From assembly GCA_964016885.1 (NCBI GenBank), contig OZ024764.1, positions 27,156,001 to 27,220,000 of the forward strand: a DNA stretch of 64,000 nucleotides. Reading direction: 5' to 3'. The position numbers and the translations under genes are program-made. Of the stretch, positions 22,801 to 53,393 are shown piece by piece (the stretch's first letter is position 1; each line of letters begins with the position of its first letter). The notes beneath the pieces are model-generated. The model was not told the origin of the DNA and did no database searches. It worked only from the letters and a program-made list of their open reading frames with translations. This DNA comes from Eledone cirrhosa. Its lineage: Eukaryota.

Positions 22801-24250
22801 TCTCTCTCTTGTTTCAACACTCTAATCCCTCACTTGTTTTATCTCTCTCTAATCCCTCACTTGTTTCATCTCTCTCAGAATTATTAGCCACAGGGGCAGA
22901 GATGTCCATAACATTACATGTCAGAATTATTAGCCACAGGGCAGAGATGTCCATAACATTACATGTCAGAATTATTAGCCACAGGGGCAGAGATGTCCAT
23001 AACATTACATGACAGAATTATTAGCCACAGGGGCAGAGATGTCCATAACATTACATGTCAGAATTATTAGACACAGGGCAGAGATGTCCATAACATTACA
23101 TGCCAGAATTATTAGCCACAGGGGCAGAGATGTCCATAACATTACATGTCAGAATTATTAGCCACAGGGGCCGAGATGTCCATAACATTACATGAAAGAA
23201 TTATTAGCCACAGGGGCAGAGATGTCCATAACATTACATGACAGAATTATTAGCCACAGGGGCAGAGATGTCCATAACATTACATGACAATTATTAGCCC
23301 CAAGGGCAGATATGTCCATAACATTACATGACAGAGTTTCATCTGGCGCTCTCTCTCTTCCTCTCTCTCGTTTCATCTCTGTCTTCCTCTCTCTCGTTCC
23401 ATCTCTCTCTTCCTCTCGCTCGTTCCATCTCTCTCTTCCTCTCTCTCGTTTCATCTCTATCTCCCTCCTTTCATCTGTCTCTCTCTCTGTCGTTTCATCT
23501 CGCGCTCTCTCTCTCTCGTTTCATCTCGCGCTCTCTCTCTCTCGTTTCATCTCTCTCTCTCTCTCGTTTCATCTCTGTCTTCCTCTCTCTCGTTCCATCT
23601 CTCTCTTCCTCTCTCTCGTTTCATCTCTATCTCCCTCGTTTCATCTCTCTCTCCCTCTCGTTTCATCTCGCTCTCTCTCTCCTGTTTCATCTCGCTCTCT
23701 ACTCTCGTTTCCTCACTCTCGTTTCCTCTCTCTCTCGTTTCCTCTCTGTCTCGTTCCATCCCGCTCTCTCTCTCTCTCATTACATCTCGCTCTCTCTGTC
23801 TCATTTCATCTCGCTCTCTCTCTCTCTCGTTTCATCTCGCTCTCACTCTCTCGTTTCATCTCGCTTCTCTCACTCTCGCGTTTCATCTCGCTCTCCCTGT
23901 CTCATTTCATCTCGCTCTCTCTCTCTCTTCCTCTCTCTCTCTTGTTTCAACACTCTAATCCCTCACTTGTTTTATCTCTCTCTAATCCCCCACGTGTTTC
24001 ATCTCTCTCAGAATTATTAGCCACAGGGGCAGAGATGTCCATAACATTACATGTCAGAATTATTAGCCACAGGGCAGAGATGTCCATAACATTACATGTC
24101 AGAATTATTAACCACAGGGGCAGAGATGTCCATAACATAACATGACAGAATTATTAGCCACAGGGGCAGAGATGTCCATAACATTACATGACAGAATTAT
24201 TAGCCACAGGGGCAGATATGTCCATAACATTACATGACAGAGTTTCATCT
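13865..24250 (-). repeat. Same composite satellite in inverted orientation: 11 CT-rich blocks separated by shorter 46-bp minisatellite blocks
   Basis: Monomers are reverse complements (CTCGTTTCATCTCGC; GAATTATTAGCCACAGGGGCAGAGATGTCCATAACATTACATGACA). The orientation switch is at CTAATAA-TGCTGAT-TTATTAG (13851-13871). Confidence 0.97.
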
Positions 24251-24419
24251 GGTTGGAGTAATAACAGTCTTGTTTATGTATATACACACATATATACATA
24301 TATATATATATATATGTTTGTTCTTGTATTTCTATAGAAAAGGTAAAGAAAAGAAGAATGCTCTATGTATTGTACAGAGCTGTTTAATTACATAATAAAC
24401 AACAGAATATAATTATTCC

Positions 24420-26774
24420 ATGCAAATAGTCTTAGAATGGAAAACATTCAGACAGAGAAGAATGGATAATGAGCGTCGTAAGAGAAATTGGCCAACAATT
24501 AATATTAATGGAAATCTAGAAGAATTTCATATTAGTGATATGAATGTTTCGTGTGATCACTGTGAAGCTTTGAAATTTAGAAATGAAAATTGTAACTGTT
24601 GTAATAAAGGAAAGGTTGTGTTGCCTCCATTGCAAATATACCCCGAGAGACTGAGAAATCTCTTTGAAAGAGGCCAGGAAGCAGTTGATTTCACAGAAAC
24701 GTCTGCAATTAAAACTACATTTATTTCACTTCATTTGGTGTTACCACCCGGCAGAGGCCCGTATAGCTTTCATATTCAGGGTCAAACATATCACTACACC
24801 CCCATCTCTGTAACCTGCAGAAAATACACCACAATATGGCCAGTTATATATTATTGATGGGAACGAAGGTGTGTAGCACAGATTGGAAGTACGACCAAAT
24901 AATTGTTTCTGGCACAAGGCCAGCAATTACTGGTACTTTATTCTATCGACCTCATAAGGATGAAAACAAAGTCAACCTTGGAGGGATTTGAACCCAGAAC
25001 GTAAAGGGCCATAACCCTATGCTGCAAAGCATGGTGTCTGACGCTCTACCGATACTGCCAATCCACCGCCCTAGTACCAAAAAATAATGAGTGCTCACCA
25101 CAAAAAATGGCTATGATAAGAGAGGTGTTGCGTGATGTAATCCATATGTCGATGTGTACAATACAATGCATGGCATCAAACAGCAAAGTGCAAGAAGAGA
25201 AAATTGTTGTGTACAGAACTGTAAATTAAGATTTAGAAGAGGATCAGATATGAGCTGCTATAATTTACCAACTAGTAATGATAGCTGTTGTTTTGTGGGG
25301 GATTGAGGGCAGACCACCTGTACAAAGAGATATTATCATCTTTCCTAAAGACCATCCTCCTCAGAAAATATCACATAATTCATGCCACTTGGACCTCATG
25401 ACCAACCCATAATGGTGAATTTTGGTGGCATAGTGACATGGAGAGGAATGCAGGACCTGTGTTTGCAATAGACTGACAATGCAGGAGTATTACATATACA
25501 GTATAGCATATAGAGGAGGATTTAGTGCGATATATAGGGCAGGTAAATTATTTTAGCAGTATTTAGTGTAAGCCTATATGAAAGTAGGGGGATGCAGGCT
25601 TCAATATTTGAGGAACAATCAAGCCCAATTGTGAGTGGATGAGTATAATGGTTTAATGAATTATCTAAACAGATGATAACACTGAGCCTTAAGAAATGAA
25701 GACAAGATAAGAAACAGAGAAGACATTGACAGAATCGTGTCAGCAGAAATACCTGCATTGGAAGATGATCAAGTACTACATGAGCAGGTTTAAAAGTTTA
25801 TGATACACGGGCCATGTGGTTCTGGAAACCCTTTTCCCCCATTTATACAAAATGGATTTTTCCAAAAGAACTATCCAAAAACCTACAGAAGGGAAACATT
25901 ATTGAACCTAAATGGATACCCAGAGTACAGGAGGTGCAAGACAGGAACTGCAGTGTAAATTGGATGACATTCAGTAGATAACAGGAATGTTGTGCCATTT
26001 AATGCCTTTTTGATTAAGAAATATTGTGCACATATTAATGTTGAAGTTTGCGCTTCTGTAAAAAGTGTCAAGTACCTCTTTAAATATGTTACATGGGGCA
26101 TGATTGTACATCTATAGAAGTAACGAATAATGCATTACCTAATGAGGCTCAGAACCAACACAACCATGATGAAATAAGAACCTATCTTTGTTGCAGGTAT
26201 GTGTCTCAGCCAGAAGCAGTGTCGTGTCTGTCCGAATTTAAGCTTCATGGTACATCACATACATTATACAGCCTAGCCACACACCTGGAGAACAAACAGA
26301 GTTTACTTTCAAAGAGGCAATGCTCAGGTTGTGGTAGAAATGCAGGGACCCTTGCTGCCTGGTTCAAGCTAAATGAACTTGCTTACACCTTCTGGGATGC
26401 CGCCTCACAAACTCCAATTAAAAGCAGGATCAATAATAATGCTTCTATGGAATATTTCAATCCAGAACAGATTATGTAATGGCACAAGATTAGAAGTAGT
26501 AGAACTGCATAAACATTTTATCAAAGCTTCTCATATCTATGGTCCTTTGATGGGCAGGTGTGTTTTGATCCCAAGACTGAAGTTAGCCCCCAGTGGTGCC
26601 AACATCCTTTTTACTTTGGAAAGACCCCAGTTTCCATTAAGACTGTCATATGCCATGACAATCAACAAGAACCATGGTCAAATACATGATAAAGTGGGTC
26701 TGTTCCTCCCTGAGCAAGTATTTAACCCTGGACAATTGTATGTTGCTTTTTCAAGAGTTCACAGACAGATGTAA
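24420..26774 (+). pseudogene. Helitron RepHel pseudogene, internally deleted and frameshifted (copy 1)
   Basis: N-terminal Cys cluster CDHCEALKF..CCNKGKVVLPP; PQYGQLYIID; DIDRIVSAEIP; Rep region MIHGPCG..YPK..GYPEYRR..DNRNVVPFN..AHINVEVCASVKSVKYLFKYV (25800-26093); DEIRTYL..RYVS..EA; PIF1 C-terminus PSGMPPHKL..LCNGTRL..LIPR..QFPLRLSYAMTINK..GQLYVAFSRV. It has stops, frameshifts and a SINE insertion. The HUH motif and helicase Walker A/B motifs were not seen. Confidence 0.93.
24904..25072 (-). mobile_element. tRNA-derived SINE inserted in the Helitron
   Basis: Minus strand shows A-box TGGCAGTATCGG, B-box GGTTCAAATCC and core GGTTGACTTTGTTTTCATCCTTATGAGGTCGATAGAATAAAGTACC. An imperfect 16-bp target duplication flanks it: AGTACGACCAAATAAT (24888-24903) and AGTACCAAAAAATAAT (25073-25088). 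Confidence 0.85.
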
Positions 26775-26968
26775 AAATTAATCCTAGCAAACCCCCACCA
26801 CTCCTACAACTGTTAGCTGTTAGCCCACCCCCAGCATCACCCAACCTCCGTTCTAGTCCCACCGTTAGAACCAATGCTGCTTACCCTGCCTCTTTTACTA
26901 GTTCACTCCGTCGCTCGAATTTCAAAGCTGGCCCTCTACACTTGGTCGTTGCCAGCTCACCACCTGGT

Positions 26969-27106
26969 TGTGCTCTCTGTGTCCGCACTAGCCGGTACCT
27001 AAACACAATAAAATGTCACCTGTGCTACCAAAACTACCACAGGAACTCTGTCGGCATCAGCAAGGCTCAAGCCGAAAGGCTTCAATACTAGACCTGTAAT
27101 CAGGGC
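26969..27106 (+). pseudogene. Degenerate PHD-type zinc finger
   Basis: Translates as CALC-x11-CHLC-x4-H-RN-S-VG..AERLQY*TCNQG. This is C4HC3 spacing, with C>S, W>stop (TGG>TAG) and C>G each explained by one substitution. Confidence 0.65.
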
Positions 27107-27346
27107 CACTTTACCTCCGACGACCAGCTTTCTACCGAGTGTGTGTTGATGGAGGGGACATGAGACCAGCAAAGTCCTAGGAGTAGAGACTAGTAAATAA
27201 TAAACGGTCCTAGCTATGTTAAGAATATATATAATAAAAATGTTCTATACATTTAAGAAGACAAGAGAAATAAATATTTACCTCTTTCATGTAGGTAATA
27301 TAGCGGTGTTATAAAAGTATAATAACTGATGCGGGTAGTTTGTTTC

Positions 27347-27934
27347 AAACTATAACACATATAACTCTATCAGTGAAGCCCTTTAGTATAGGTCAACTGG
27401 GAAACTATAACACATATAACCCTATCAGTGAAGTCCTTTAGTATAGGTCAACTGGGAAACTATAACACATATAACCCTATCAGTGAAGTCCTTTAGTATA
27501 GGTCAACTGGGAAACTATAACACATATAACCCTATCAGTGAAGTCCTTTAGTATAGGTCAACTGGAAAACTATAACACATATAACCCTATCAGTGAAGCC
27601 CTCTGGGAAACTATAACACATATAACTCTATCAGTGAAGCCCTTTAGTATAGGTCAACTGGGAAACTATAACACATATAACCCTATCAGTGAAGTCCTTT
27701 AGTATAGGTCAACTGGGAAACTATAACACATATAACCCTATCAGTGAAGTCCTTTAGTATAGGTCAACTGGGAAATTATAACACATATAACCCTATCAGT
27801 GAAGTCCTTTAGTATAGGTCAACTGGGAAACTATAACACATATAACCCTATCAGTGAAGTCCTTTAGTATAGGTCAACTGGGAAACTATAACACATATAA
27901 CCCTATCAGTGAAGTCCTTTAGTATAGGTCAACT
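27347..27934 (+). repeat. 55-bp minisatellite, about 11 copies (one truncated)
   Basis: Unit AAACTATAACACATATAACCCTATCAGTGAAGTCCTTTAGTATAGGTCAACTGGG, period 55 (27401, 27456, 27511). Confidence 0.95.
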
Positions 27935-27947
27935 AACAGAAGTATTA

Positions 27948-28001
27948 AGGTGGGCTCGATTGTGGCCCGCGGGCCGCCTGTTGCACGCCCCTCCTTTAGA
28001 C
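27948..28001 (+). mobile_element. 3' terminus of a hAT-like non-autonomous DNA transposon
   Basis: GGCCCGCGGGCCGCCTGTTGCACGCCCCTC followed by CTTTAGAC, which resembles a hAT/Charlie terminus and an 8-bp nTCTAGAn-type target site. The matching 5' end was not identified. Confidence 0.5.
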
Positions 28002-28019
28002 AGAATATCTATCACAGTT

Positions 28020-28235
28020 AAGTAATACTGTGATCTGTCGGCCAACTACATTTTCCAGCCTGAGGCGTTTGGGGGAGTCGGGATACTGACTGCGAGATTC
28101 CTATCTTCACTGGCGGCTAGCCTGACGAAGGTGACTGGTGAAGCTCGTGAGGGCACTTGGTTGTTCCAGCTCCTCAGCCTCGCCATCGCCCGAGGTAACG
28201 CTGCAGACGTGCTGGCTTGCCTAAAAAATCATTAG
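28020..28235 (+). pseudogene. C-terminal remnant of a CRE-like non-LTR retrotransposon (restriction-like endonuclease end), family 1
   Basis: Translates as K*YCDLSANYIFQPEAFGGVGILTARFLSSLAASLTKVTGEAREGTWLFQLLSLAIARGNAADVL. This matches the KY..Y.F.P.A.E..G..G...TGE.RE..WL.Q.LS.A..RGNA pattern. Confidence 0.75.
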
Positions 28236-28320
28236 AGAGGTTTCCCAGTGCTCCTCGCGATACTGTTATCTTTTGCTCTAGTAGCAGCTCGTTTGTCCAC
28301 CCCTTTCGCCTGCCTTTGGT

Positions 28321-28501
28321 TGTATGTCGTCCTAGATGTGTGTATTACCTGCTTGTGTGTTGTATGTGGTCCTAGATGTGTGTATTACCTGCTTATGTGG
28401 TCCTAGATGTATGTATTACCTGCTGGTGTGTTGTATGTGGTCCCAGATGTGTGCATTACCTGTTTTTGTGTTGTATGTGGTCCCAAATGTGTGTGCTACC
28501 C
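28321..28501 (+). repeat. About 40-bp degenerate tandem repeat, about 5 copies, downstream of the CRE-like remnant
   Basis: TGTATGTGGTCCTAGATGTGTGTATTACCTGCTTGTGTGT is repeated. Also present at 43273-43453. Confidence 0.8.
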
Positions 28502-29858
28502 GCTTCTGTGATTTGTTTTGTTCCTTCTTTCTCTCTTCCGAGAAACAATCCTGTATTTTTTTAATCTATTCCATGCGTTAAGTAATTAGCAGCAACAACA
28601 AACTGATTTTCAGTTGTAAAAAGAATCTTTAAACCTTCACCATTTACATTAACACATACCATACGTTGTCCCAGCCACAAATAAACAGTAAAAAAAAACT
28701 TACTTTGCGGTTAAATTCTTCACAATTAAAAGAAAAATATTTCTAACACGTTTCTAGACAACACCAAGTTTACACCTTCAATATCCGGTAAAAGTAAAAA
28801 CAAATTCTGGAGACATTTAACGAAACGAAACTATGTAAAGAAAAACGAAAATTAAACGAAGACAAGTAGTAAATTTTAATTTTTATTAAATAAAATACCA
28901 GTAATTCACTGCAGTAGATTTAATCAACTTTACTCTCTCTGCACGAAAGAAGAAAAAAATTCCTGACTTAGTGCTTAATATATAGAGAGGGGGAGAGTTT
29001 GGTGTTACTTCATATAGAGAGGGGTATTGGAAGAGAGTGCCGTGTAGTAGATATAGAGAGGGAGAGAGTTAGTGCTAATTGATATAAAGAGGGGGATTTG
29101 CACCCCACCCCCTAGAAAAATTCTGAAATGCTTCGACCTCCCTGTACATATATATATATATATAGTATACACACACAGACATTTTTATGTATATATTATA
29201 TATATAGTAAATAAATGTGTGTGTGTATCAGTGGTCGCCAAACTTTTCTGTTCCACACCCCTCCTCTAAAATATGTTTATGTTCCCCTTTAATATAAAAA
29301 CAATCCGAGTATTCTGAAAGTATTATTACTGTAATATAAAGTAGAAACCCTTTATTTAAACAAAGCTACGATGCAGCGATGATCAAAACAAACTTCTCGT
29401 AGGTGCTGCCAAGCGGGGAAAAGTGGATGTATAATGATGATGATATATATATATATGCCCCACCCTTGCAAACAGGGAAAAGCAGACGTAAAATGAAAAT
29501 GATGATATATATATAGATAGATAGATATGTATTTATACTTATACGTCATGGTGGCTACAGGTGCCAAGAGGAAGAAGCCGGTCAAATCCTCTGATATTTG
29601 TTTATCTTCCTTTCCTTTGTATATATATATATAGTATGTGTGTATGAAGATGTATGACCCCCTAGCAAACCAAACTACAGTTACTCCCCAACATGGAGAG
29701 CAAATTAAAACATTACCTGTTAGAGAGGAACGTGAAATGAATTGTTAGTGAACTACCGGTGTAACAGTAATTATGTTACCGGTGTAACTATTTCTGTTTA
29801 CCTTATTTTTAAATGACACTCCTATATTAGTTTAGTGACCTTTCAATTCAAATAAATT

Positions 29859-30265
29859 CTTGATGATGATTGAACTCGCCTTGGCCTCCGCGTGTGTGAG
29901 CCACATAAATGCTCTCAACGACATAGTGAGAAGAAGCCTGGACGCAGCTGAATTTCCATCTCAACTGGAGCCAGCAGGCCTAGGCCGCGGAGATGGCAAG
30001 CACCGCGAGGGAATCACCCTCTTCCCATTCGAAGGAGGTAGATCCACAAACCCCAGCATCGCTGCCCGTCTCGCAGATGAACATAAAATAAACAAATTCC
30101 GGTGTTTGTCCTGGAGCCTCTTCTAAGCACCAGCCGCCGTCGAGACCCCGGGCCAACTTGGACCCATTACAGCCGAGCTCCTCCGCAACATCGCAGTGTC
30201 TGTGGCCCGTCTGAGGATGGAGTCCCACGAGGTTGGATGCCTGTTGCAGCAGGTGTCACTGTCCT
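29859..30265 (+). pseudogene. CRE-like non-LTR retrotransposon remnant (zinc-knuckle start plus PD-(D/E)xK endonuclease), family 2
   Basis: RLGLRVCEPHKC, then NALNDIVRRSLDAAEFPSQLEPAGLGRGDGKH(R/P)EGITLFPFEGGR..AARLADEHKINKF..PAAVETPGQLGP..LLQQVSL. It carries internal deletions and stops. Confidence 0.8.
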
Positions 30266-30382
30266 TACATATATATACGTAAATGTTCCCTTGACTGCTA
30301 TTTCTAGCATATATTAATAGACACTTTAGAAACAGCAGCTAAAAATCAAGAAACAACAGTGTGTGTCTGTATATATATACAC

Positions 30383-30421
<39 letters not shown>

Positions 30422-30500
30422 AGCCAAAGACACGCACACACGAACATACACATACACACAGGTGTATGTCTGCGTGTATGTATATATATGTGTGTGTCTT

Positions 30501-30564
<64 letters not shown>

Positions 30565-30595
30565 TTATGTCAGTGATCCCCCTCGCAACCTTTAA

Positions 30596-31185
30596 TTAAA
30601 CAAACCTGCGATGAGGCGATGATCAAAATAAACACCAAAGTATAAACAAACAGCCCATAGGTGCTGCCGGATACACGATAACATGTGTAGACGAAGTAAA
30701 ACTTTTATTACTGTAATATAAAGTAGAAACCCTATATTTAAACAAAGCTGCGATGCAGCGATGATCAAAACAAACTTCAAATAACATGTGTATACGAAGT
30801 GTATCTGGAAGCTTGGTCGTATTATATGACTTTCAAATTGACCCCTATTATATTCAAATTATCCCCTGTGGGGCGTGCACCCCACGTTGAGAATCCCTCA
30901 TAAATAAAAATATGTGAGTGTGTTGCTATGACTGCTATTTCTAGCAGGTTTACTGCAGTTCTGTAGACGCACAACAAAAACCGGAAGTGGCAGCCATTAA
31001 AAAACTTTGGCTTAAAATCAGCCAAAAGATTTTCAATAATAGTAAAATTTTATTTTTGACAAGGACGATAACTTTTGTCTTACTTAATCGCAAAAATCGA
31101 GGCAAAAATTTTGCGGGTGTGCAGTTTACACGCTAAAATAAACCTGCTAGAAATAGCAGTTATAGCAACTCACATATATTTATAT

Positions 31186-31219
<34 letters not shown>

Positions 31220-31630
31220 CCAAACACACACCCTTATATATGTACGTGTGTGTGTGTTGACCGCTATATATATATATAGCAGCCAAACACATACACAGAC
31301 ACACATATATATATATATACATGTGTGTGTATATGTGTGTGTCCTCCTCTCGTCTATGGCTGTTATTTTTACATTGTCCTTTTTGTTATTTTTCTCGGGA
31401 TTTGCCCGGATTCGAACATGCGACCACCTATTTACAATATAGAATCTTTACAGCTTTACTGACTTTTAAGTAATCCAAGTTGTAACCCCGGATTTAGTAG
31501 TGTTTAATTTATTTTGAAGTATTTTATTATTGGCCTTAGTTAGACGATCGTCCAAGACCATGCTGGGGCATATATATATATATGTATATATATGTGTGTG
31601 TGTGTGTGTATGCTGGGGCATATATATATA

Positions 31631-31682
<52 letters not shown>

Positions 31683-32330
31683 CTAGGGCATATATATATA
31701 TGTGTGTGTGTGTATATATATATATATGTGTGTGTGTCCTTTCTGTTATTCGCTGCTATTTCTAAAGTGTCAATATATATATCATATATATATATATATG
31801 ATATATAAATATATGTAAGTGAGTTGCTATGACTGCTATTTCTAGCAGGTTTATTTTTAGCGTGTAAACTGCACACCCTCAAAATTTTTGCCTCGATTTT
31901 TGCGATTAAGTAAGACAAAAGTTATCGTCCTTGTCAAAAATAAAATTTTACTATTATTGAAAATCTTTTGGCTGATTTTAAGCCAAAGTTTTTTAATGGC
32001 TGCCACTTCCGGTTTTTGTTGTGCGTCTACAGGACTGCAGTAAACCTGCTAGAAATAGCAGTCATAGCAACACACTCACATATATTTATTTATGAGGGAT
32101 TCTCAACGTGGGGTGCACGCCCCACAGCGGATAATTTGAATATAATAGGGGTCAATTTGAAAGTCATATAATACGACCCAACTCCCTGTTACACTTCGTA
32201 TACACATGTTATCGTGTATCTGGCAGCACCTGCGAGAAGTTTGTTTACATTTTGGGGTTTGCTTTGATGATCGCTGCATCGCAGCTTTGTTTAAATAAAG
32301 GGTTTCTACTTTATATTACAGTAATAACAC
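30596..32330. mobile_element. Large palindromic (foldback-type) element with microsatellite-rich centre
   Basis: 30815-31172 is the reverse complement of about 31817-32178 (mirrored ORFs 30822..31025- and 31968..32171+). The motif CTGCTATTTCTAGCA recurs in both orientations. A further partial arm lies at 29280-29412. Confidence 0.75.
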
Positions 32331-32996
32331 TTTTACAAGACTCGGATTGTTTTTATATTAAAGGGGACATGTTTTTTAAACTCTGAACTCAGCATCTTTC
32401 TGTTGTTCTCCGGGATTCTAGCAAAGTATAAAAATATATATATATATATAGCTGGCAGTCAACCTCAGACTCGAAAAAGCCGCCGCTAATCGTGATCGTT
32501 GGGGTTATAATTAGACTAAAAGTGCTTCCACTGGTCACTATTAGCTGGTTGTGATCATTGGAGAATTCTTTCTGCGCTGAAAGAGCCTAGGACTAAAAGA
32601 TATATATATAGATGTCGAAACGGCAGTAGCACAGCCGTTGGGGTCCTGAATATTTTCACATCTATATATGTGTGTGTATTCTGCGACATTTATAATTACA
32701 TAAGCAAGCATATTTGAATAACAAAATTTGAGGTTTAAATACTTTATTTTTTACCAATAACATAGAGAAAGGCATGAACAACACCACATGTTAATTACTT
32801 TAATATTGAAAGTAGGGTTATAAAGATTAAAAAAGCAGATTTTTTAATCTTTCATGGTGGTCTGGTGGGTGATACCAGAGATGGTGGTAGTCCTGGTTTC
32901 GGTTTCAATCCCGGTCATGGGTTACATATAAGGTCTCATTTTTTTTTTTCTTTCTTTCAGTTTTCTTCTTATCTCTAGATATAAATATATATACAT

Positions 32997-33104
32997 AAGG
33001 TAATTTGGTAGAATTGTTAGAACATCAGATAGAATTCTTTGCAGTATTTTTCCAGTTCTTTACTCTGAGTTCAACTTTACCTTTCTTCCATTCGGTGTCG
33101 ATAA
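32997..33104 (+). mobile_element. Degenerate tRNA-derived SINE related to the minus-strand SINEs
   Basis: TTGGTAGAATTGTTAG..TCTGAGTTCAACTTTACCTTTCTTCCATTCGGTGTCGATAA. Copies lie near 35591, 47271 and 49897. Confidence 0.55.
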
Positions 33105-33222
33105 GTCTTGAATATGTCTAACGTAGCAATAATTGGAGCTACTTAACCAAGTTTTCCCAACCTAGTCGATGTCACCTACTGGTTGGCGATTTAAACTGTT
33201 GGCTGGGACAATGACCAACTAA

Positions 33223-33470
33223 TCAGTCAGATTCGAACTCACTATGTCTGGCATATATTTTATATTTTATATTTGAATGACGTTCTGTAAGTAACCTGGT
33301 GGCTTAGATGGCAATACTGCTCGAATAGATGGCTTCTATTATGAAGTTATAAGTTCATTCCCTATCCAGGATTGTAGAATTAATTTTATTTAGTTATTAT
33401 TTAATCAATTGTTTTAACAAACAAATTATATCTATAAAACGCCAAATATAGTGAGTTCAAATCTGACTGA
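33223..33470. mobile_element. About 250-bp MITE-like element with 30-bp terminal inverted repeats
   Basis: TCAGTCAGATTCGAACTCACTATGTCTGGC (33223-33252) pairs with GCCAAATATAGTGAGTTCAAATCTGACTGA (33441-33470) with 3 mismatches. No target duplication is evident. Confidence 0.65.
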
Positions 33471-33794
33471 CATGCATGGTATATATTTATGTTTCATTAT
33501 ACAACGACACAATACACAGGAACTTATAAAGATATGTATATATTGTCCAGGAGTTTCGAGTTTAGTGGGAATTGGTACAACTCTCAATTGGAGCTAGTTC
33601 CTGCAAGATCAGCATAAATAATGTTATACCTTTTCATGAAATCTTGCACACCCGATGTTTTATACATGATTATTTAAAGGTGAACAAAAACCAAAGAACA
33701 TTGTGCAGCATTTCTCAACCTTTCTACCCATGTCGATCTCTTGAAATAGTTTTTATGTCTCAGGGATGCCCTGCATAAAATATACTTTTTCTAT

Positions 33795-33850
33795 CTCTAG
33801 AGCAGTGGTTCCCAAATCGTGTGCTGCGAGATGAAACAAGATGAGCTGCA
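33795..33850 (+). mobile_element. 5' terminus of a hAT-like MITE
   Basis: CTCTAGAG (hAT-type target) followed by CAGTGGTTCCCAAA. Similar hAT-like starts occur near 29229 (CAGTGGTCGCCAAACTTTT) and 33707 (CAGCATTTCTCAACC). Confidence 0.5.
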
Positions 33851-33954
33851 AAAGACTAAGATTAAGTTTTAAGATGTGAAAAATATAAAACTGAAATTTC
33901 ATATAAAAGTTCAAATATAGCTACAGCCACAAACCTAGGCTCCACACCCCGCAA

Positions 33955-34150
33955 TGCAAAGGATAGTAAGATAGTACCAAGGCCTGACTCACCTCTTCCA
34001 CTCCATTGAGACCTCTGCCATACTTGGTCCCTGTACTGCTGATTTCCTCCATAAAGTCGGGAGGAAAGACGACAGGAGCCTCATGAGGAGGGGCGACTAT
34101 TGTAGCAGGTGTCTCTGGCCTTGCTCCGAGGTAACGCTTTTACGTTTCTT
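33955..34150 (+). pseudogene. CRE-like non-LTR retrotransposon C-terminal remnant, family 3 (4 copies in window)
   Basis: Across frameshifts it reads A(K/E)DSK..YQGLTHLFHSIETSAILGPCTADFLHKVGRK..QEPHEEGRLL*QVSLALLRGNAF. Other copies start near 36528, 48230 and 50855. Confidence 0.65.
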
Positions 34151-34526
34151 CCACAGGTTGCGGCTGAGGGACCACTTAGACTGGGGTGAAGTGTCTGTCC
34201 CTCCCCCGACTTCTTACTTCTTTTTTTTTCTCATTTTCATTTTCTTTTCTCTTCTTGCTTATCTCTGCTATACCACGGCATCAAAAACATATATGATATG
34301 TGTATGTATGGTATAGGTGTATTTATATTTAGGATAGTTATCAAAGGTAAATAGACTGGTTGAAGCAATAACAGTCTTGTTTATGTATATACACACATAT
34401 ATATATATATATATATATATCTGTTTGTTCTTGTATTTCCATAGAAAAGGTAAAGAAAAGAAGAATGCTCTATGTATTGTACAGAGCTATTTAATTACAT
34501 AATAAACAACAGAATATAATTATTCC

Positions 34527-34803
34527 ATGCAAATAGACTTAGACTGGAAAACATTCAGACAGAGAAGAATGGATAATGAGCGTCGTAAGAGAAATTGGCC
34601 AACAATTAATATTAATGGAAATGTAGAAGGATTTCATATTAGTGATATGAATGTTTCGTGTGATCACTGTGGAGCTTTGAAATTTAGAAATGAAAATTGT
34701 AACTGTTGTAATAAAGGAAAGGTTGTGTTGCCACCATTGCAAATATACCCTGAGAGACTGAGAAATCTCTTTGAAAGAGATTTCTCAGTCTCTCAGGGTA
34801 TAT
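34527..34803 (+). pseudogene. Helitron 5' fragment truncated by a perfect 30-bp fold-back
   Basis: Matches the Helitron N-terminus up to ..RNLFER. Then 34743-34772 and 34774-34803 form a perfect inverted repeat around a single G. Confidence 0.9.
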
Positions 34804-35511
34804 ATTCCCGCCGTTGAAATAAAAATTTTAATAGAAAAACGGCGGGAATATATGTTACAACCCAATCTATATATATTTAGGTTGTAACATATATTCCCGC
34901 CGTTGAAATAAAAATTTTAATAGAAAAACGGCGGGAATATATGTTACAGCCCAATCTATATATATTTGGGTTTTAACATATATTCCCGCCGTTGAAATAA
35001 ACATTTTAATAGAAAAACGGCGGGAATATATGTTACAACCCAATCTACATATATTTGGGTTGTAACATATATTCCCGCCGTTGAAATAAAAATTTTAATA
35101 GAAAAACGGCGGGAATATATGTTACAACCCAATCTACATATATTTGGGTTGTAACATATATTCCCGCCGTTGAAATAAAAATTTTAACATAAAAACGGCG
35201 GGAATATATATTACAACCCAAACATATATAGGTTGGGTTGTAACATATATTCCCGCCGTTTTTCTATTAAAATTTTTATTTCAACGGCGGGAATATATGT
35301 TACAACCCCAAAATATGTAGCTTGGATTGTAACATATATTCCCGCCGTTTTTCTATTAAAATTTTTATTTCAACGGCGGGAATATATGTTACAACTCAAA
35401 TATATATAGATTGGGTTGTAACATATATTCCCGCCGTTTTTCTATTAAAATTTTTATTTCACCGGCAGGAATATGTTACAACCCAAATATATATATATTG
35501 AGTTGTAACAT
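34801..35511. repeat. 89-bp self-complementary ('dumbbell') tandem array, 8 units, internally inverted
   Basis: Unit = X' + 22-nt loop + X + 11-nt loop, with X=AACGGCGGGAATATATGTTACAACCCAA. Period is 89 (34804, 34893, 34982). Five forward long loops are followed by three reverse ones. Confidence 0.95.
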
Positions 35512-36963
35512 GGGTTACATATAAGGTCTCATTTTTTTTCTTTTCTTTCTTTCAGTTTTCTTCTTATCTCTAGATATAAATATATATACATAAGGTAACT
35601 AGGTAGAATTGTTAGAACATCAGATAGAATTCTTTGCAGTATTTTTCCAGTTCTTTACTCTGAGTTCAACTTTACCTTTCTTCCATTCAGTGTCGATAAG
35701 TCTTGAATATGTCTAACGTAGCAATAACTGGAGCTACTTAACCAAGTTTTCCCAACCTAGTCGATGTCACCTACTGGTTGGCGATTTAAACTGTTGGCTG
35801 CGACAATGACCAACTAATCAGTCAGATTCGAACTCACTATGTCTGGCATATATTTTATATTTTATATTTGAATGAAGTTCTGTAAGTAACCTGGTGGCTT
35901 AGATGGCAATACTGCTCGAATAGATGGCTTCTAGTTCATTCCCTATCCAGGATTGTAGAATTAATTTTATTTAGTTATTATTTAATCAATTGTTTTAACA
36001 AACAAATTATATCTATAAAACGCCAAATATAGTGAGTTCAAATCTGACTGACATGCATGGTATATATTTATGTTTCATTATACAGCGACACAGGAACTTA
36101 TAAAGATATGTATATATTGTCCAGGAGTTTCGAGTTTAGTGGGAATTGGTACAACTCTCAGTTGGAGCTAGTCCCTGCAAGATCAGCATAAATAATGTTA
36201 TACCTTTTCATGAAATCTTGCACACCCGATATTTTATACATGATTATTTAAAGGTGAACAAAAACCAAAGAACATTGTGCAGCATTCTCAACCTTTCTAC
36301 CCATGTCGATCTCTTGAAATAGTTTTTATGTCTCAGGGAAGCCCTGCATAAAATATACTTTTTCTATCTCTAGAGCAGTGGTTCCCAAATCGTGTGCTGA
36401 GAGATGAAACAAGATGAGCTGCAAAAGACTAAGATTAAGTTTTATGATGTGAAAAATATAAAACTGAAATTTCATATAAAAGTTCAAATATAGCTACAGC
36501 CACAAACCTAGGCCCCACACCCCGCAATGCAGAGGATAGTAAGATAGTACCAAGGCCTGACTCACCTCTTCCACTCCATTGAGACCTCTGCCATACTTGG
36601 TCCCTGTACTGCTGATTTCCTCCATAAAGTCGGGAGGAAAGACGACAGGAGCTTCATGAGGAGGGGCGACTATTGTAGCAGGTGTCTCTGGCCTTGCTCT
36701 GAGGTAACGCTTTTACGTTTCTTCCACAGGTTGCGGCTGAGGGACCACTTAGACTGGGGTGAAGTGTCTGTCCCTCCCCCGACTTCTTACTTCTTTTTTT
36801 TTCTCATTTTCATTTTCTTTTCTCTTCTTGCTTATCTCTGCTATACCACGGCATCAAAAACATATATGATATATGTATGTATGGTATAGGTGTATTTATA
36901 TTTAGGATAGTTATCAAAGGTAAATAGACTGGTTGGAGCAATAACAGTCTTGTTTATGTATGT

Positions 36964-37008
<45 letters not shown>

Positions 37009-37109
37009 TGTTCTTGTATTTCCATAGAAAAGGTAAAGAAAAGAAGAATGCTCTATGTATTGTACAGAGCTATTTAATTACATAATAAACAACAGAATAT
37101 AATTATTCC

Positions 37110-37869
37110 ATGCAAATAGACTTAGAATGGAAAACATTCAGACAGAGAAGAATGGATAATGAGCGTCGTAAGAGAAATTGGCCAACAATTAATATTAATG
37201 GAAATGTAGAAGAATTTCATATTAGTGATATGAATGTTTCGTGTGATCACTGTGGAGCTTTGAAATTTAGAAATGAAAATTGTAACTGTTGTAATAAAGG
37301 AAAGGTAGTGTTGCCACCATTGCAAATATACCCTGAGAGACTGAGAAATCTCTTTGAAAGAGGCCAGGAAGCAGTTGATTTCACAGAAACATCTGCAATT
37401 AAAACTACATTTATTTCACTTCATTTGGTGTTACCACCCGGCAGAGGCCCGTATAGATTTCATATTCAGGGTCAAACATATCAATACACACCCATCTCTG
37501 TAACCTGCAGAAAATACACCACAATATGGCCAGTTATATATTATTGATGGGAACGAAGGTGTGTAGCACAGATTGGAAGTACAACCAAATAATTGTTTCT
37601 GGCACAAGGCCAGCAATTACTGATACTTTATTCTATCGACCTCATAAGGATGAAAACAAAGTCAACCTTAGAGGGATTTGAACCCAGAACGTAAAGGGCC
37701 ATAACCCTATGCTGCAAAGCATGGTGTCTGACGCTCTACCGATACTGCCAATCCACTGCCCTAGTCCCAACAAATAATGACTGCTCACCACAAAAAATGG
37801 CTATGATAAGAGAGGTGTTGCATGAATATAATCCATATGTCGAAGTGTACAATACAATGCATGGCATCA
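37110..37869 (+). pseudogene. Helitron RepHel pseudogene copy 2, 5' part
   Basis: Near-identical to 24420-25178, including the SINE at 37594-37762. Ends at GGCATCA. Confidence 0.9.
37594..37762 (-). mobile_element. tRNA-derived SINE (paralog of 24904-25072)
   Basis: Same sequence and flanks as the copy-1 SINE. Confidence 0.85.
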
Positions 37870-38405
37870 CAAATGAATATATATATATATACTACTAAAG
37901 TGTATGTAAAATTTTAAAATAAATACTTAAATTCAATTTGTATAATTACACATACAATATGTTTTGTTGTAAAACCCTAAATAATGATTTAAGAAATGAT
38001 GTCAATCTCTTTGTACAGAGAAAAACAATTTATATATATGCATCGTGTGCGCGTGTATACTCCATTTAAGACAGCGAAAAACCTAGTACCTCCTTCAAAG
38101 AATGCCAAATAGTTTATGCCTAAGGTGTAACACTAATTAAGTTACTGGTATAGATATTTCAGTTGAACCCTGCTTCAAACATGCATATTATTATTATATA
38201 TTTTCAAACACACTTACATACATTATATTTATACACATAGAAATGTTAAAACTAAAGTATAATGATATAACAACAGTATATAATAGTTTTCTTCACTTTA
38301 TTGAGATGCAATCGTTTTAAAGAAAAAACATGACAGTATAAGAAATATTTAATATGATAACATAATATTTCAGGTAGGATGGTGGTTTCTCTTTGAACTA
38401 ATAAT

Positions 38406-38570
38406 TGTTTCTACTTTAGGCACAAGGCCAGCAATTAACCAGTACATTACTGGTACTTTATTTTATCGACCCCGTAAGGATGAAAGGCAAAGTTAACCTC
38501 GGATCGTAAAGGGACGTAACTATGCTGGAAAGCATGGCGTCAGACCCTCTACCGATACTGCCAATTCACC
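38406..38570 (-). mobile_element. tRNA-derived SINE, separate insertion with the B-box region deleted
   Basis: Core TTATCGACCCCGTAAGGATGAAAGGCAAAGTTAACCTCGG, with an A-box at the right end. Paralog at 52723-52887. Confidence 0.8.
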
Positions 38571-38771
38571 ATACAGTATAATTATACAAATATGCATATA
38601 GATAGCAATATATATACACTAATATGTATGTACATATTTATACATATATACATATATATAGGGAGAGAGAGAGACACATGTATGTATATATATATACACA
38701 TGCGTGTATGTATGTGTTTATGTACATTCTTCGGTATATATATATGAGTCACGGTTTATTACACATTGGAG

Positions 38772-40494
38772 ACACAGAGAGAAAGAGTTGAAACGAGAGG
38801 TGAGAGAGTTGAAACAAGAGAGGAGAGAGTTGAAACGAGAAAAGAGAGAGAGAGTTGAAACGAGAGGAGAGAGAGAGAGAGTTGTAACGAGAGGAGAGAG
38901 AGAGAGAGAGTTGAAACGAGAGGAGAGAGAGTTGAAACGAGGAGAGAGTTGAAACAAGAGGGTGAGGGGAGAGAGGGGAGAGAGTGATGAAACGAGTCGG
39001 AGATAGAGTGTGAAAGAGAGAGAGAGAGGAAGAGAGAGAGAGAGAGGAAGAGAGAGAGAGAGGAAGAGAGAGAGAGAAAGAGAGAGAGAGAGGAAGAGAG
39101 AGAGAGGAAGAGAGAGAGAGGAAGAGGGAGAGGGGGGATGAAACAAGAGGGTGAGGGATGAAACAAGAGAGAGAGGGGAGAGAAAGAGAGAGGGGAGAGA
39201 AAGAGAGAGGGGAGAGAAAGAGAGAGAGAGAGAGAGAACGAATTGAAACAAGAGAGAGATGAAACAAGTGAGGGATTAGAGTGTTGAAACAAGAGAGAGA
39301 GGAAGAGAGAGAGAGAGCAAGATGGAACGAGAGAGAGAGAGCGAGATGAAATGAGAGCGAGATGAAACGAGAGAGAGAGAGAATGAGATGAAATGAGAGA
39401 GAGAGAGAGCGAGAGAGAGAGCGAGATGAAACGAGAGAGAGAGAGAGAGAGAGAGAGCGAGATGAAATGAGACAGAGAGAGCGAGATGAAACGAGAGAGA
39501 GAGAGAGCGAGATGAAATGAGAGAGTGAGTGCGAGATGAAATGAGAGAGAGTGAGAGCGACATGAAATGAGAGAGAGAGAGCGAGATGAAACGAGAGAGA
39601 GAGAGAGCGAGATGAAATGAGAGAGAGTCAGAGCGAGATGAAATGAGAGAGTGAGAGCGAGATGAAATGAGAGAGAGAGAGCGAGATGAAATGAGAGAGA
39701 GTGAGAGCGAGATGAAATGAGAGAGAGAGAGCGAGATGAAATGAGAGAGAGAGGAAACGAGACTAGAGAGCGAGATGAAACAGGAGAGAGAGAGCGAGAT
39801 GAAACAGGAGAGAGAGAGCGAGATGAAACAGGAGAGAGAGAGCGAGATGAAACGAGAGGGAGAGAGAGATGAAATGAGAGAGCGAGAGAGAGATAGAGGG
39901 AGATGAAACGACAGAGAGAGAGACAGATGAAACGAGAGAGAGAAATAGAGATGAAACGAGAGAGAGTGATGAAACGAGAGAGAGGAAGAGAGAGATGGAA
40001 CGAGAGAGAGGAAGAGAGAGATGGAACGAGAGAGAGGAAGACAGAGATGAAATGAGAGAGAGGAAGACAGAGATGAAACGAGAGAGAGAGAGAGCGAGAT
40101 GAAACGAGAGAGAGAGAGCGCGAGATGAAACTCTGTCATGTAATGTTATGGACATATCTGCCCCTGGGGCTAATAATTGTCATGTAATGTTATGGTCATC
40201 TCTGCCCCTGTGGTTAATAATTCTGTCATGTAATGTTATGGTCATGTCTGCACCTGTGGCTAATAAATCTGTCATGTAATGTTATGGTCATCTCTGCCTC
40301 TGTGGCTAATAATTCTGTCATGTAATGTTATGGACATCTCTGCCCCTGTGGCTAATAATTCTGACATGTAATGTTATGGACATCTCTGCCCCGGTGGCTA
40401 ATAATTCTGACATGTACTGTTATGGACATCTCTGCCCCTGTGGCTAATAATTCTGACATGTAATGTTATGGACATTGCTATCTTGTTTCATCTC
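38772..40494 (+). repeat. Single higher-order unit of the composite satellite
   Basis: GA block at about 38772-40131 and 46-bp block at about 40132-40475, then TGCTA plus the inverted motif TCTTGTTTCATCTC. Confidence 0.93.
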
Positions 40495-42663: not shown

Positions 42664-42825
42664 AAACTATAACACATATAACTCTATCAGTGAAGCCCTT
42701 TAGTATAGGTCAACTGGGAAACTATAACACATATAACCCTATCAGTGAAGTCCTTTAGTATAGGTCAACTGGGAAATTATAACACATATAACCCTATCAG
42801 TGAAGTCCTTTAGTATAGGTTAACT
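42664..42825 (+). repeat. 55-bp minisatellite, about 3 copies
   Basis: Same unit as 27347-27934. Confidence 0.93.
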
Positions 42826-45604: not shown

Positions 45605-45631
45605 GTCAGTGATCCCCCTCGCAACCTTTAA

Positions 45632-46950
45632 TTAACCAAACCTGCGATGAGGCGATGATCAAAATAAACACCAAAGTATAAACAAACAGCCCATAGGTGC
45701 TGCCGGATACACGATAACATGTGTAGACGAAGTAAAACTTTTATTACTGTAATATAAAGTAGAAACCCTTTATTTAAACAAAGCTGCGATGCAGCGATGA
45801 TCAAAACAAACTTCAAATAACATGTGTATACGAAGTGTATCTGGAAGCTTGGTCGTATTATATGACTTTCAAATTGACCCCTATTATATTCAAATTATCC
45901 CCTGTGGGGCGTGCACCCCACGTTGAGAATCCCTCATAAATAAATATATGTGAGTGTGTTGCTATGACTGCTATTTCTAGCAGGTTTACTGCAGTCCTGT
46001 AGACGCACAACAAAAACCGGAAGTGGCAGCCATTAAAAAACTTTGGCTTAAAATCAGGCAAAAGTTTTTTAACAATTTGCCAAGAAAGATAACTCTTGTC
46101 TTACTTAATCGCAAAAATCGAGGCAAAAATTTTGTGGGTGTACAGTTTGTTTGGTGTATTTGACTGCTATTTCTAGCATGTATGGACACTTTAGAAATAG
46201 CAGCGAAAAACGGAAAACAGCAGAAAGAAGGACACACACCTATATATATATATATATATACCAGCTATACACTCACCCATACATATATATATATACCAGC
46301 TATACACACACCCATATCTACGTATAGGTGTGTGTGCGCGCGTGTATGTATATATAAATATATATATTTAAATGTATATATCTGTGCATATATATATGTA
46401 TATATATATACGTGTGTGTCCTTCTTTCTTATGTTTCCCGTGTTTCGCTGCTATTTCTAAAGTGTCCATATATGCTAGAAATAGCAGTCAAATACACCAA
46501 ACAAACTGCACACCCGCAAAATTTTTTGCCTCGATTTTTGAGATTAAGTAAGACAAGAGTTATCTTTCTTGGCAAATTGTTAAAAAACTTTTGCCTGATT
46601 TTAAGCCAAAGTTTTTTAATGGCTTCCACTTCCGGTTTTTGTTGTGCGTCTACAGGACTGCAGTAAACCTGCTAGAAATAGCAGTCATAGCAACACACTC
46701 ACATATATTTATTTATGAGGGATTCTCAACGTGGGGTGCACGCCCCACAGGGGATAATTTGAATATAATAGGGGTCAATTTGAAAGTCATATAATACGAC
46801 CCAACTCCCTGTTACACTTCGTATACACATGTTATCGTGTATCTGGCAGCACCTGCGAGAAGTTTGTTTACATTTTGGGGTTTGCTTTGATGATCGCTGC
46901 ATCTCAGCTTTGTTTAAATAAAGGGTTTCTACTTTATATTACAGTAATAA
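45632..46950. mobile_element. Large palindromic element (copy 2, different inner part)
   Basis: About 45851-46207 is the reverse complement of about 46443-46801 (mirrored ORFs 45858..46061- and 46591..46794+). Confidence 0.75.
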
Positions 46951-48665
46951 CACTTTTACAAGACTCGGATTGTTTTTATATTAAAGGGGGACATGTTTTT
47001 TAAACTCTGAACTCAGCATCTTTCTGTTGTTCTCCGGGATTCTAGCAAAGTATAAAAAAAAATATATATATATAGATATATATATATATATCTGGCAGTC
47101 AACCTCAGACTCGAAAAAGCCGCCGCTATCTTTCATGGTGGTCTGGTGGGTGATACCAGAGATGGTGGTAGTCATGGTTTCGGTTTCAATCCTGGTCATG
47201 GGTTACATATAAGGTCTCATTTTTCTTTCTTTCAGTTTTCTTCTTATCTCTAGATATAAATATATATACATAAGGTAATTTGGTAGAATTGTTAGAACAT
47301 CAGATAGAATTCTTTGCAGTATTTTTCCAGTTCTTTACTCTGAGTTCAACTTTACCTTTCTTCCATTCGGTGTCGATAAGTCTTGAATATGTCTAACGTA
47401 GCAATAACTGGAGCTACTTAACCAAGTTTTCCCAACCTAGTCGATGTCACCTACTGGTTGGCGATTTAAACTGTTGGCTGGGACAATGACCAACTAATCA
47501 GTCAGATTCCAACTCACTATGTCTGGCATATATTTTATATTTTATATTTGAATGAAGTTCTGTAAGTAACCTGGTGGCTTAGATGGCAATACTGCTCGAA
47601 TAGATGGCTTCTATTATGAAGTTATAAGTTCATTCCCTATCCAGGATTGTAGAATTAATTTTATTTAGTTATTATTTAATCAATTGTTTTAACAAACAAA
47701 TTATATCTATAAAACGCCAAATATAGTGAGTTCAAATCTGACTGACATGCATGGTATATATTTATGTTTCATTATACAGCGACACAATACACAGGAACTT
47801 ATAAAGATATGTATATATTGTCCAGGAGTTTCGAGTTTAGTGGGAATTGGTACAACTCTCAATTGGAGCTAGTCCCTGCAAGATCAGCATAAATAATGTT
47901 ATACCTTTTCATGAAATCTTGCACACCCGATATTTTATACATGATTATTTAAAGGTGAACAAAAACCAAAGAACATTGTGCAGCATTTCTCAACCTTTCT
48001 ACCCATGTCGATCTCTTGAAATAGTTTTTATGTCTCAGGGAAGCCCTGCATAAAATATACTTTTTCTATCTCTAGAGCAGTGGTTCCCAAATCGTGTGCT
48101 GCGAGATGAAACAAGATGAGCTGCAAAAGACTAAGATTAAGTTTTAAGATGTGAAAAATATAAAACTGAAATTTCATATAAAAGTTCAAATATAGCTACA
48201 GCCACAAACCTAGGCTCCACACCCCGCAATGCAGAGGATAGTAAGATAGTACCAAGGCCTGACTCACCTCTTCCACTCCATTGAGACCTCTGCCATACTT
48301 GGTCCCTGTACTGCTGATTTCCTCCATAAAGTCGGGAGGAAAGACAACAGGAGCCTCATGAGGAGGGGCAACTATTGTAGCAGGTGTCTCTGGCCTTGTT
48401 CCGAGGTAACGCTTTTACGTTTCTTCCACAGGTTGCGGCTGAGGGACCACTTAGACTGGGGTGAAGTGTCTGTCCCTCCCCCGACTTCTTACTTCTTTTT
48501 TTTTCTCCTTTTCATTTTCTTTTCTCTTCTTGCTTATCTCTGCTATACCACGGCATCAAAAACATATATAATATGTGTATGTATGGTATAGGTGTATTTA
48601 TATTTAGGATAGTTATCAAAGGTAAATAGACTGGTTGGAGCAATAACAGTCTTGTTTATGTATAT

Positions 48666-48732
<67 letters not shown>

Positions 48733-48833
48733 TGTTCTTGTATTTCCATAGAAAAGGTAAAGAAAAGAAGAATGCTATATATATTGTACAGAGCTATTTA
48801 ATTACATAATAAACAACAGAATATAATTATTCC

Positions 48834-49109
48834 ATGCAAATAGACTTAGACTGGAAAACATTCAGACAGAGAAGAATGGATAATGAGCGTCGTAAGAGAA
48901 ATTGCCAACAATTAATATTAATGGAAATGTAGAAGGATTTCATATTAGTGATATGAATGTTTCGTGTGATCACTGTGGAGCTTTGAAATTTAGAAATGAA
49001 AATTGTAACTGTTGTAATAAAGGAAAGGTTATGTTGCCACCATTGCAAATATACCCTGAGAGACTGAGAAATCTCTTTGAAAGAGATTTCTCAGTCTCTC
49101 AGGGTATAT
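48834..49109 (+). pseudogene. Helitron 5' fragment with 30-bp fold-back (copy 2)
   Basis: Arms at 49049-49078 and 49080-49109. Confidence 0.9.
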
Positions 49110-49816
49110 ATTCCCGCCGGTGAAATAAAAATTTTAATAGAAAAACGGCGGGAATATATGTTACAACCCAACCTACATATTTTTGGGCTGTAACATATAT
49201 TCCCGCCGTTGAAATAAATATTTTAATAGAAAAACGGCGGGAATATATGTTACAACCCAATCTATATATATTTGAGTTGTAACATATATTCCCGCCGTTG
49301 AAATAAAAATTTTAATAGAAAAACGGCGGGAATATATGTTACAACGCAATCTATATATATTTGGGTTGTAACATATATTCCCGCCGTTGAAATAAAAATT
49401 TTAATAGAAAAACGGCGGGAATATATGTTACAACCCAACCTACATATGTTTGGGTTGTAATATATATTCCCGCCGTTTTTCTGTTAAAATTTTTATTTCA
49501 ACGGCGGGAATATATGTTACAACCCAAATATATGTAGATTGGGTTGTAACATATATTCCCGCGTTTTTCTATTAAAATTTTTATTTCGACGGCGGGAATA
49601 TATGTTACAACCCAAATATATATAGATTGCGTTGTAACATATATTCCCGCCGTTTTTCTATTAAAATTTTTATTTCAACGGCGGGAATATATGTTACAAC
49701 CCAAATATATGTACATTGGATTGTAACATATATTCCCGCCGTTTTTCTATTCAAATTTTTATTTCACCGGCGGGAATATGTTACAACCCAAATATATATA
49801 TATTGAGTTGTAACAT
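49107..49816. repeat. 89-bp dumbbell array, copy 2 (4 forward plus 4 reverse long loops)
   Basis: Same unit as 34801-35511. Confidence 0.95.
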
Positions 49817-51400: not shown

Positions 51401-52146
51401 AGAATGGAAAACATTCAGACAGAGAAGAATGGATAATGAGCGTTGTAAGAGAAATTGGCCAACAATTAATATTAATGGAAATGTAGAAGAATTTCATACT
51501 AGTGATATGAATGTTTCGTGTGATCACTGTGGAGCTTTGAAATTTAGAAATGAAAATTGTAACTGTTGTAATAAAGGAAAGGTTGTGTTGCCACCATTGC
51601 AAATATACCCTGAGAGACTGAGAAATCTCTTTGAAAGAGGCCAGGAAGCAGTTGATTTCACAGAAACATCTGCAATTAAAACTACATTTATTTCACTTCA
51701 TTTGGTGTTACCACCCGGCAGAGGCCCGTATAGCTTTCATATTCAGGGTCAAACATATCACTACACCCCCATCTCTGTAACCTGCAGAAAATACACCACA
51801 ATATGGCCAGTTATATATTATTGATGGGAACGAAGGTATGTAGCACAGATTGGAAGTACGTCCAAATAATTGTTTCTAGCACAAGGCCAGCAATTACTGG
51901 TACTTTATTCTATCGACCTAATAAGGATGAAAACAAAGTCAACCTTGGAGGGATTTGAACCCAGAACGTAAAGGGACATAACCCTATGCTGTAAAGCATG
52001 GTGTCTGGCGCTCTACCGATACTGCCAATCCACTGCCCTAGTACCAACAAATAATGACTGCTCACCACAAAAAATGGCTATGATAAGAGAAGTGTTGCAT
52101 GAATGTAATTCATATGTCGAAGTGTACAATACAATGCATGGCATCA
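51401..52146 (+). pseudogene. Helitron pseudogene copy 3, 5' part (SINE at 51871-52039)
   Basis: ORF 51429..51824 matches copies 1 and 2. A 30-bp deletion between AGAAT repeats removes the first ATG. Ends at GGCATCA, as in copy 2. Confidence 0.9.
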
Positions 52147-52150
52147 CAAA

Positions 52151-52187
<37 letters not shown>

Positions 52188-52887: not shown

Positions 52888-53081
52888 ATACAGTATAATT
52901 ATACAAATATGCATATAGATAGCAATATATATACACTAATATGTATGTACATATTTACACATATGTACATATATATAGGGAGAGAGAGAGACACATGTAT
53001 GTATATATATATACACATGCGTGTATGCATGTGTGTTTATGTACATTCTTCGGTATATATATCGGTATACACATTGGAGAC

Positions 53082-53341: not shown

Positions 53342-53393
<52 letters not shown>

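Follow-up and report, generated by a model that had tools for sequence, protein, structure and literature searches.

The 89-bp tandem repeats in the window (the whole 64,000-nt stretch of Eledone cirrhosa DNA that was analysed) are probably the debris of ordinary transposons, rather than a dumbbell of a new, self-replicating kind. The explanation we consider likely is that the array is made up of eight stacked 78-bp mini-mariners with 11-nt (TA)n remnants, which was expanded, inverted in part and joined by repair into a decayed Helitron. An earlier note on this DNA had singled out the array as the best candidate for an undescribed system in the window, but the match of the stem to mariner TIRs and the orientation pattern of the loops favour transposon debris.

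Parsing the array element by element showed that each unit consists of a 28-bp stem (S) and its reverse complement (S'), with 22-nt and 11-nt loops alternating. Equally, each unit can be divided into a 78-bp TIR-spacer-TIR element and an 11-nt TA-rich spacer, and the array (array A) holds eight of these.

34800–35511, no strand assigned: array copy A, 8.0 copies with a period of 89 (Tandem Repeats Finder).
35055–35132, no strand assigned: one clean 78-bp element, consisting of a 28-bp TIR (35055–35082), a 22-nt spacer and a 28-bp TIR (35105–35132).

The description of eight tandem units with a 28-bp stem closed by 22- and 11-nt loops, first made by inspection, was confirmed by both Tandem Repeats Finder and the parsing. 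Both ends of array A lie inside S', at about the same stem position (12–14), and the last 11-nt loop, as in a second array copy (array B, below), is pure TA. The predicted fold of the array A region has an energy of −356.7 kcal/mol (z = −48.7 against 20 shuffles). A circularised 89-nt monomer is predicted to fold as a dumbbell (−28.7 kcal/mol), which agrees with what had been proposed for it. As any unit with one inverted repeat folds as a dumbbell, the monomer fold is uninformative on circles.

The stem-22-stem element is likely a MADE1-like mini-mariner of 78 bp, to judge from its TIRs. Reference TIRs were available for 26 of the 32 lineages in Table 1 of PMC4678618, in the portion of that source at hand. 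By eye, seven of the eight mellifera and cecropia TIRs have two bases followed by GGGTT, as does S', and none of the other 18 do. Four of the 26 TIRs were chosen by eye and compared with the circular unit over 178 registers. In all four cases, the best register was the one beginning at the first base of the stem, with 21/31, 18/30, 18/30 and 19/31 identities, the best (21/31) being with Rpmar4. Shuffled units scored as well in 2, 64, 51 and 27 of 3000 trials, respectively, and equally good windows were found in the background of the window 0, 1, 0 and 0 times in ~50,250. After a ~26-fold correction for choice, the best TIR is at ~0.02 and the other three are not significant on score alone. Only the Rpmar4 match stays near 0.02 on score; the coincidence of register is added evidence. 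The element has two of the features of a mariner-derived, MADE1-like MITE, namely a TIR of ~28–33 bp that resembles mariner from the terminal base, and two such TIRs around a small non-coding spacer (78 bp, 28-22-28).

Made1 (MADE1), the MITE of the human mariner Hsmar1, is 80 bp long, with a short spacer between its two TIRs in a 37-6-37 arrangement (PMC1784062 and PMC9062482, in the parts available). The element described here is likewise ~80 bp and non-coding, with mariner-type TIRs, a short spacer and a strong hairpin. It differs in having 28-bp stems and an asymmetric 22-nt spacer in place of 37 + 6, and most of its copies lie in an eight-unit array within an amplified block, in contrast to the thousands of dispersed Made1 copies. 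Rpmar4, 20, 23, 24 and 31 from Rhodnius prolixus (mellifera/cecropia) share with the stem the start of the TIR, a T-rich inner end and the same register, with 18–21 identities of 30–31, but the middle of the TIR differs and those elements are 0.9–1.3 kb long with TA duplications. According to the available part of PMC4678618, mariners rarely yield MITEs below about 800 bp.

The 11-nt loop is likely a decayed (TA)n target remnant, a reading that depends on its base composition. It is TA-rich, but its length is odd and TA is not present on both sides in a TA...TA arrangement, so the canonical target duplication is not apparent in the array. No transposase family was found in the six frames of 24250–34800 and 35512–38800. 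Both the spacer without TA...TA and the want of a transposase partner in 24250–38800 outside the array would fit a palindromic minisatellite unrelated to mariner, or the modular arm of a foldback element, captured as a templated insertion, and so would the symmetric 4+4 layout of array B with a variant common to its first and last stems. We find this origin improbable given the match to mariner TIRs in the terminal register, the existence of single-hairpin relatives with other spacers and flanks, and array ends that are ragged microhomology joints, not element termini.

Those relatives were found in public contigs of run X1. The hairpin surrounds a different spacer in at least nine X1 contigs. 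At least five contigs leave directly after the stem into unrelated flanks (next base T, then consensus A, agreement 0.59) and at least five run on into TA-rich sequence. The relatives are thus diverged copies with other flanks, and are apparently dispersed. Together with the terminal register of the mariner TIRs, they largely give the unit the identity that the earlier note had named as the one at odds with its own reading, the TIR of a MITE-like family.

Exact-pattern scans of viral contigs, metagenome contigs and prokaryote genomes, collections ill-suited to an animal repeat, returned no matches, and the letters of the unit or the satellite were not found in the papers searched. The Octopus vulgaris annotation, as described in the accessible part of PMC13282606, includes many Tc1-mariner and MITE families, and annotations under 100 bp were filtered from it; an element of this length could therefore have escaped cataloguing. 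The unit was also considered as a Helitron end and rejected, as it has no CTRR and no HLE2 ends. In the definitions given in the available part of PMC11417382, HLE1 has a 5' TC and a short 3' hairpin followed by CTRR, and this configuration was not found; the unit cut at the 11-nt loop starts with TC and ends in CCAA, with the stem reaching the end. HLE2 (Helitron2/Helentron) has 11–18-nt TIRs and a separate terminal stem-loop, and the unit has one 28-bp stem pair instead.

The 22-nt loops of array A are in forward orientation in the first five units and reversed in the last three, with the switch at the 11-nt loop at 35222–35232. A reversal had been placed at about 35225, which is correct, though the palindrome that it was said to make of the whole array is off-centre (5+3 loops). 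A second complete array is present in the window, and comparison of the two revealed an inverted segment.

49049–49816, no strand assigned: snap-back (49049–49109) and array copy B (49106–49816).
35133–35232, no strand assigned: inverted 100-bp segment, reversed relative to array B 49439–49538, with opposed 28-bp stems at its bounds.

Array B has four forward and four reversed 22-nt loops, making a symmetric 4+4 palindrome in which the first and last stems share one variant. It sits between blocks 47197–49085 and 49814–51639 and has both junctions. A higher-order duplicate (32847–39995 versus 47128–54185) holds both arrays, and array B is a duplicate of array A, not a donor. The statement that no source of the unit is visible elsewhere in the window had overlooked array B, though as a duplicate it does not supply that source. 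A fuzzy search of the window, using a probe offset by one base, found no further stem or loop copies outside arrays A and B.

Aligned directly, the 100-bp segments of arrays A and B differ by 16 mismatches and 4 gap columns, while the reverse complement aligns with 2 mismatches and no gaps; the inverted segment bears three private markers. In-place inversion between opposed stems therefore does occur in these arrays, and it accounts for the different switch points of arrays A and B. Outside the flipped segment there are 13 differences to the left (13/333 sites) and 13 to the right (13/~278), a divergence of ~4–5% compared with ~1–1.5% in the flanks, or about three to four times higher. Some array variants recur at mirror positions, and this and the high array divergence suggest that arm-to-arm conversion may have occurred. 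Microinversions have been linked to stem-loops in chloroplasts, and the avian hotspots covered in the same source lack stem-loops (PMC3123225, in the part available).

The simplest account of the orientation pattern is a head-to-tail array plus inversion. The reading in the earlier note was that a tiny dumbbell replicon, with the Helitron RepHel as its nicking enzyme, left a rolling-hairpin intermediate integrated here, or that the array is the product of repeated terminal snap-back synthesis. The dumbbell fold of the monomer, the insertion within a Helitron RepHel remnant and the presence of both flip and flop loop forms, as in rolling-hairpin replicons, are in keeping with it. We simulated hairpin-primed mirror copying from one monomer, with folding at the terminal hairpin only, a process that produces many orientation switches. 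Among 15-loop windows, one switch or fewer was seen in 0 of 25 with full-length copying, 0 of 100000 with copying of random length and 0 of 100000 with short copying, and an exhaustive search (8623 states, up to 22 loops) gave a minimum of 3 switches per 15 loops. Arrays A and B have one switch each, which misfits hairpin-primed copying, though later inversions could alter the pattern. Both forms of this reading, with repeated terminal snap-back never falling below three switches, are already largely refuted by the orientation pattern. Further, flips arise in place and move the switch, and an unrelated 46-bp satellite likewise reverses at a perfect fold-back (13818–13904). The break lies within an ORF, away from the Helitron ends, neither CTRR nor the 11–18-nt TIRs of HLE2 are present in the unit, and a single junction event accounts for both copies. 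We give this reading very little credence.

The surroundings of the array consist of Helitron pieces and duplicated blocks.

24462–26780, forward strand: decayed Helitron RepHel carrying stops and changes of frame, in which the break site is un-rearranged; it defines the flanking element.
32916–34779, forward strand: first copy of the 1.86-kb block, ending in a truncated Helitron RepHel N-terminus (ORF start 34569).
34743–34803, forward strand: snap-back hairpin at the left junction, perfect, with 30-bp arms and a 1-nt loop.
35509–35511, forward strand: CAT microhomology at the right junction, where the array meets the beginning of the duplicated block.
35509–37362, forward strand: second copy of the 1.86-kb block, with the Helitron N-terminus (37152) un-rearranged to about 37869.

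The Helitron noted at the flank is supported by matches of fragments 25980–26099 and 26502–26768 to Helraiser (7LCC; E 8.7e-11 and 8.6e-22) and by the Pfam domains PF14214 (below the curated cut-off) and PF21530 in one of 12 frames. The Helitron N-terminus occurs five times in the window (24462, 34569, 37152, 48876 and 51429) and the four copies of the 1.86-kb block differ by 1.0–1.5%. No Rfam matches were found in 24000–54500, and a Pfam scan of short frames gave a sub-threshold chance match only.

Several other features were seen in this region. From 24249 to 54532 there is a higher-order unit of ~14–15 kb with Helitron pieces, a 55-bp tandem array (27347–27934, 11 copies; 42664–42825, 3 copies) and satellites. 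At 25176 the Helitron runs through without a break, and the next copy is split by ~2.6 kb that includes satellite (37870–40492). Large imperfect palindromes at 30589–32336 and 45625–46959 are likely two copies of another TIR element placed head to head, and nested 53-bp inverted repeats in the palindrome end in TA runs (30900–31187 and 31801–32093). Copies of a short interspersed repeat, ~73% alike, lie at 24910–25070, 37588–37756 and 38400–38570, and this repeat may resemble an octopus SINE. The fold-back at 13818–13904, where a GA-rich and 46-bp satellite field reverses, has 40-bp arms and a 7-nt loop, and the skew changes sign there.

At the left junction, a pre-existing 6-bp hairpin (34767–34779) is followed by 24 new bases (34780–34803) that were copied perfectly from 34743–34766, the last four of which (ATAT) are common to the start of the array. 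In the un-rearranged Helitron allele, the same 6-bp hairpin is followed by GCCAGG; past the hairpin, three copies of the Helitron N-terminus continue with GCCAGG and two turn back there. At the right junction, the array exits through CAT, common to both sides, to a point 1.86 kb upstream, so that both the entry from a Helitron snap-back and the exit to the start of the 1.86-kb block are as originally described. The start of that block resembles the TIR/stem in 13 of 16 columns, a score reached by 2 of 434 control tiles. The break lies within the Helitron ORF, away from the Helitron end. Informative sites group the first block copies with each other and the second with each other (5:1:0), and the junction must thus have formed once, ahead of the duplication of the 14-kb block.

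The form of these junctions likely reflects snap-back synthesis and microhomology joining, with the mechanism and the putative enzyme suggested by sequence features. In the snap-back model of synthesis-dependent MMEJ (SD-MMEJ), taken from the available part of PMC5728401, there is a short inverted primer repeat at the break, a longer new inverted repeat and an exit microhomology, and all three were found here, with ATAT and CAT as the microhomologies. Unlike the junctions in that part of PMC5728401, which are shorter, the one here continues from the snap-back into a foreign insert of 0.7 kb and a duplication of 1.86 kb.

The array that entered the break could also have arisen if the element and its spacer formed an 89-nt circle that was copied by rolling circle, with the concatemer captured at the break and the flip coming later. 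Rolling circle likewise yields runs of the same orientation, the unit count of the insert is an integer, both ends being at stem positions 12–14, and the circular monomer fold is stable. Tandemisation of Helitrons by rolling circle has been described (PMC12628747, in the part available), and Helitron rolling-circle arrays resemble this one in having tandem copies beside a RepHel remnant, though the unit here lacks Helitron termini. Slippage does not require both array ends to be at the same unit phase. However, the phase match is weak given the microhomology, as CAT ends at two unit positions and ATAT starts at six; two of these six ATAT starts are at the array-end spot on that strand, making the coincidence a weak one, and there is only one event. 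We therefore regard rolling-circle copying as unlikely. A more specific version, in which a mini-mariner plus TA was circularised, the Helitron RepHel acting in trans rolled out the eight-mer and the concatemer was joined into the Helitron break, is compatible with a whole number of units and with the position in a Helitron, and is very improbable. Were it true, a cut-and-paste MITE would have hijacked rolling-circle machinery.

Public sequencing data were used to examine whether the structure is real. Part of 34640–35680 was carried by eight of the 12 public runs listed, with the largest shares in organism A (0.51) and organism B (0.47) and 0.05–0.09 in organisms C, D and E. Four runs were mapped on 34630–34912, which represents one monomer and the left junction. 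Run X10 consists of raw RAD reads of another sample from another study. Its depth across the snap-back is ~17–19, and the un-rearranged continuation is present in 99 reads, which supports both forms as real. Three loop variants were found in 31, 89 and 31 of 233 X10 reads (13%, 38% and 13%), compared with 3, 7 and 2 of the 16 loops in the window, and a stem marker found once per array was in 28 of 223 X10 reads. The X10 unit pool looks like copies of the same eight-unit array. Loose ends in X10 at 34684, 34695 and 34823–34824 are at AATT sites and were set aside as library artefacts.

In X1, the summed contig depth is 1,045–1,368 at the junction, 8,681–12,804 at the loop and adjacent positions and up to ~37,000 in the stem, and there are also several long pieces at a depth of 5–15. 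These depths are not copy numbers, but they suggest that the 14-kb block is present on the order of a hundred times and that no large satellite exists apart from it. X2, under a second organism label, includes a contig with the tandem unit and a variant of the array right end; no X2 contig covers the snap-back (depth 0), a result that does not establish its absence. No X6 sequences, and none from organism C, were placed on 34630–34912. Palindromic tandem arrays are difficult to assemble and the window is highly repetitive, which would favour an assembly or sequencing artefact. Against this, there are two copies that have diverged on both sides of the flipped segment, raw reads from another sample span the snap-back junction with the same private variants, and the tandem unit is present in contigs under a second organism label, and the chance of an artefact is negligible.

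The sequence of events that we favour, ending in a stack of mini-mariners within a decayed Helitron, would begin with a mini-mariner in a TA run gaining a second stem in direct orientation, via a fold-back copy or double insertion. Directly oriented stems could then seed slippage or unequal exchange, giving eight units in the same orientation. Inversion between opposed 28-bp stems, seen for the 100-bp segment, would also have produced the main switch. Just past the small hairpin, at 34779, a break would have been followed by snap-back synthesis for 24 bases, entry into the array via ATAT and return via CAT to the point 1.86 kb upstream, duplicating 1.86 kb. The array would then have been amplified passively within the 14-kb block, and read depth points to wider amplification. 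No donor eight-unit array free of the Helitron junction was seen.

Routes by which tandem repeats arise from MITEs are summarised in PMC12628747. In the part of that source available, Angel, Xstir, miDNA4 and TE dimers are cases in which a short palindromic MITE is multiplied by fold-back, double insertion or unequal exchange, as is proposed here. MITE-derived repeats integrate via local homology, and here the landing site resembles the TIR. This array differs from them in that the unit is a whole element plus target remnant and in that an internal inversion is present in two states.

If the favoured explanation is right, no new system is opened, and only the rolling-circle variant would surprise. 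The element would be a rare example of a MADE1-sized mariner MITE outside primates. The array would provide a clean snapshot of the passage from MITE to minisatellite, with one array in two inversion states, and would be useful to work on the origin of satellites and the instability of palindromes.
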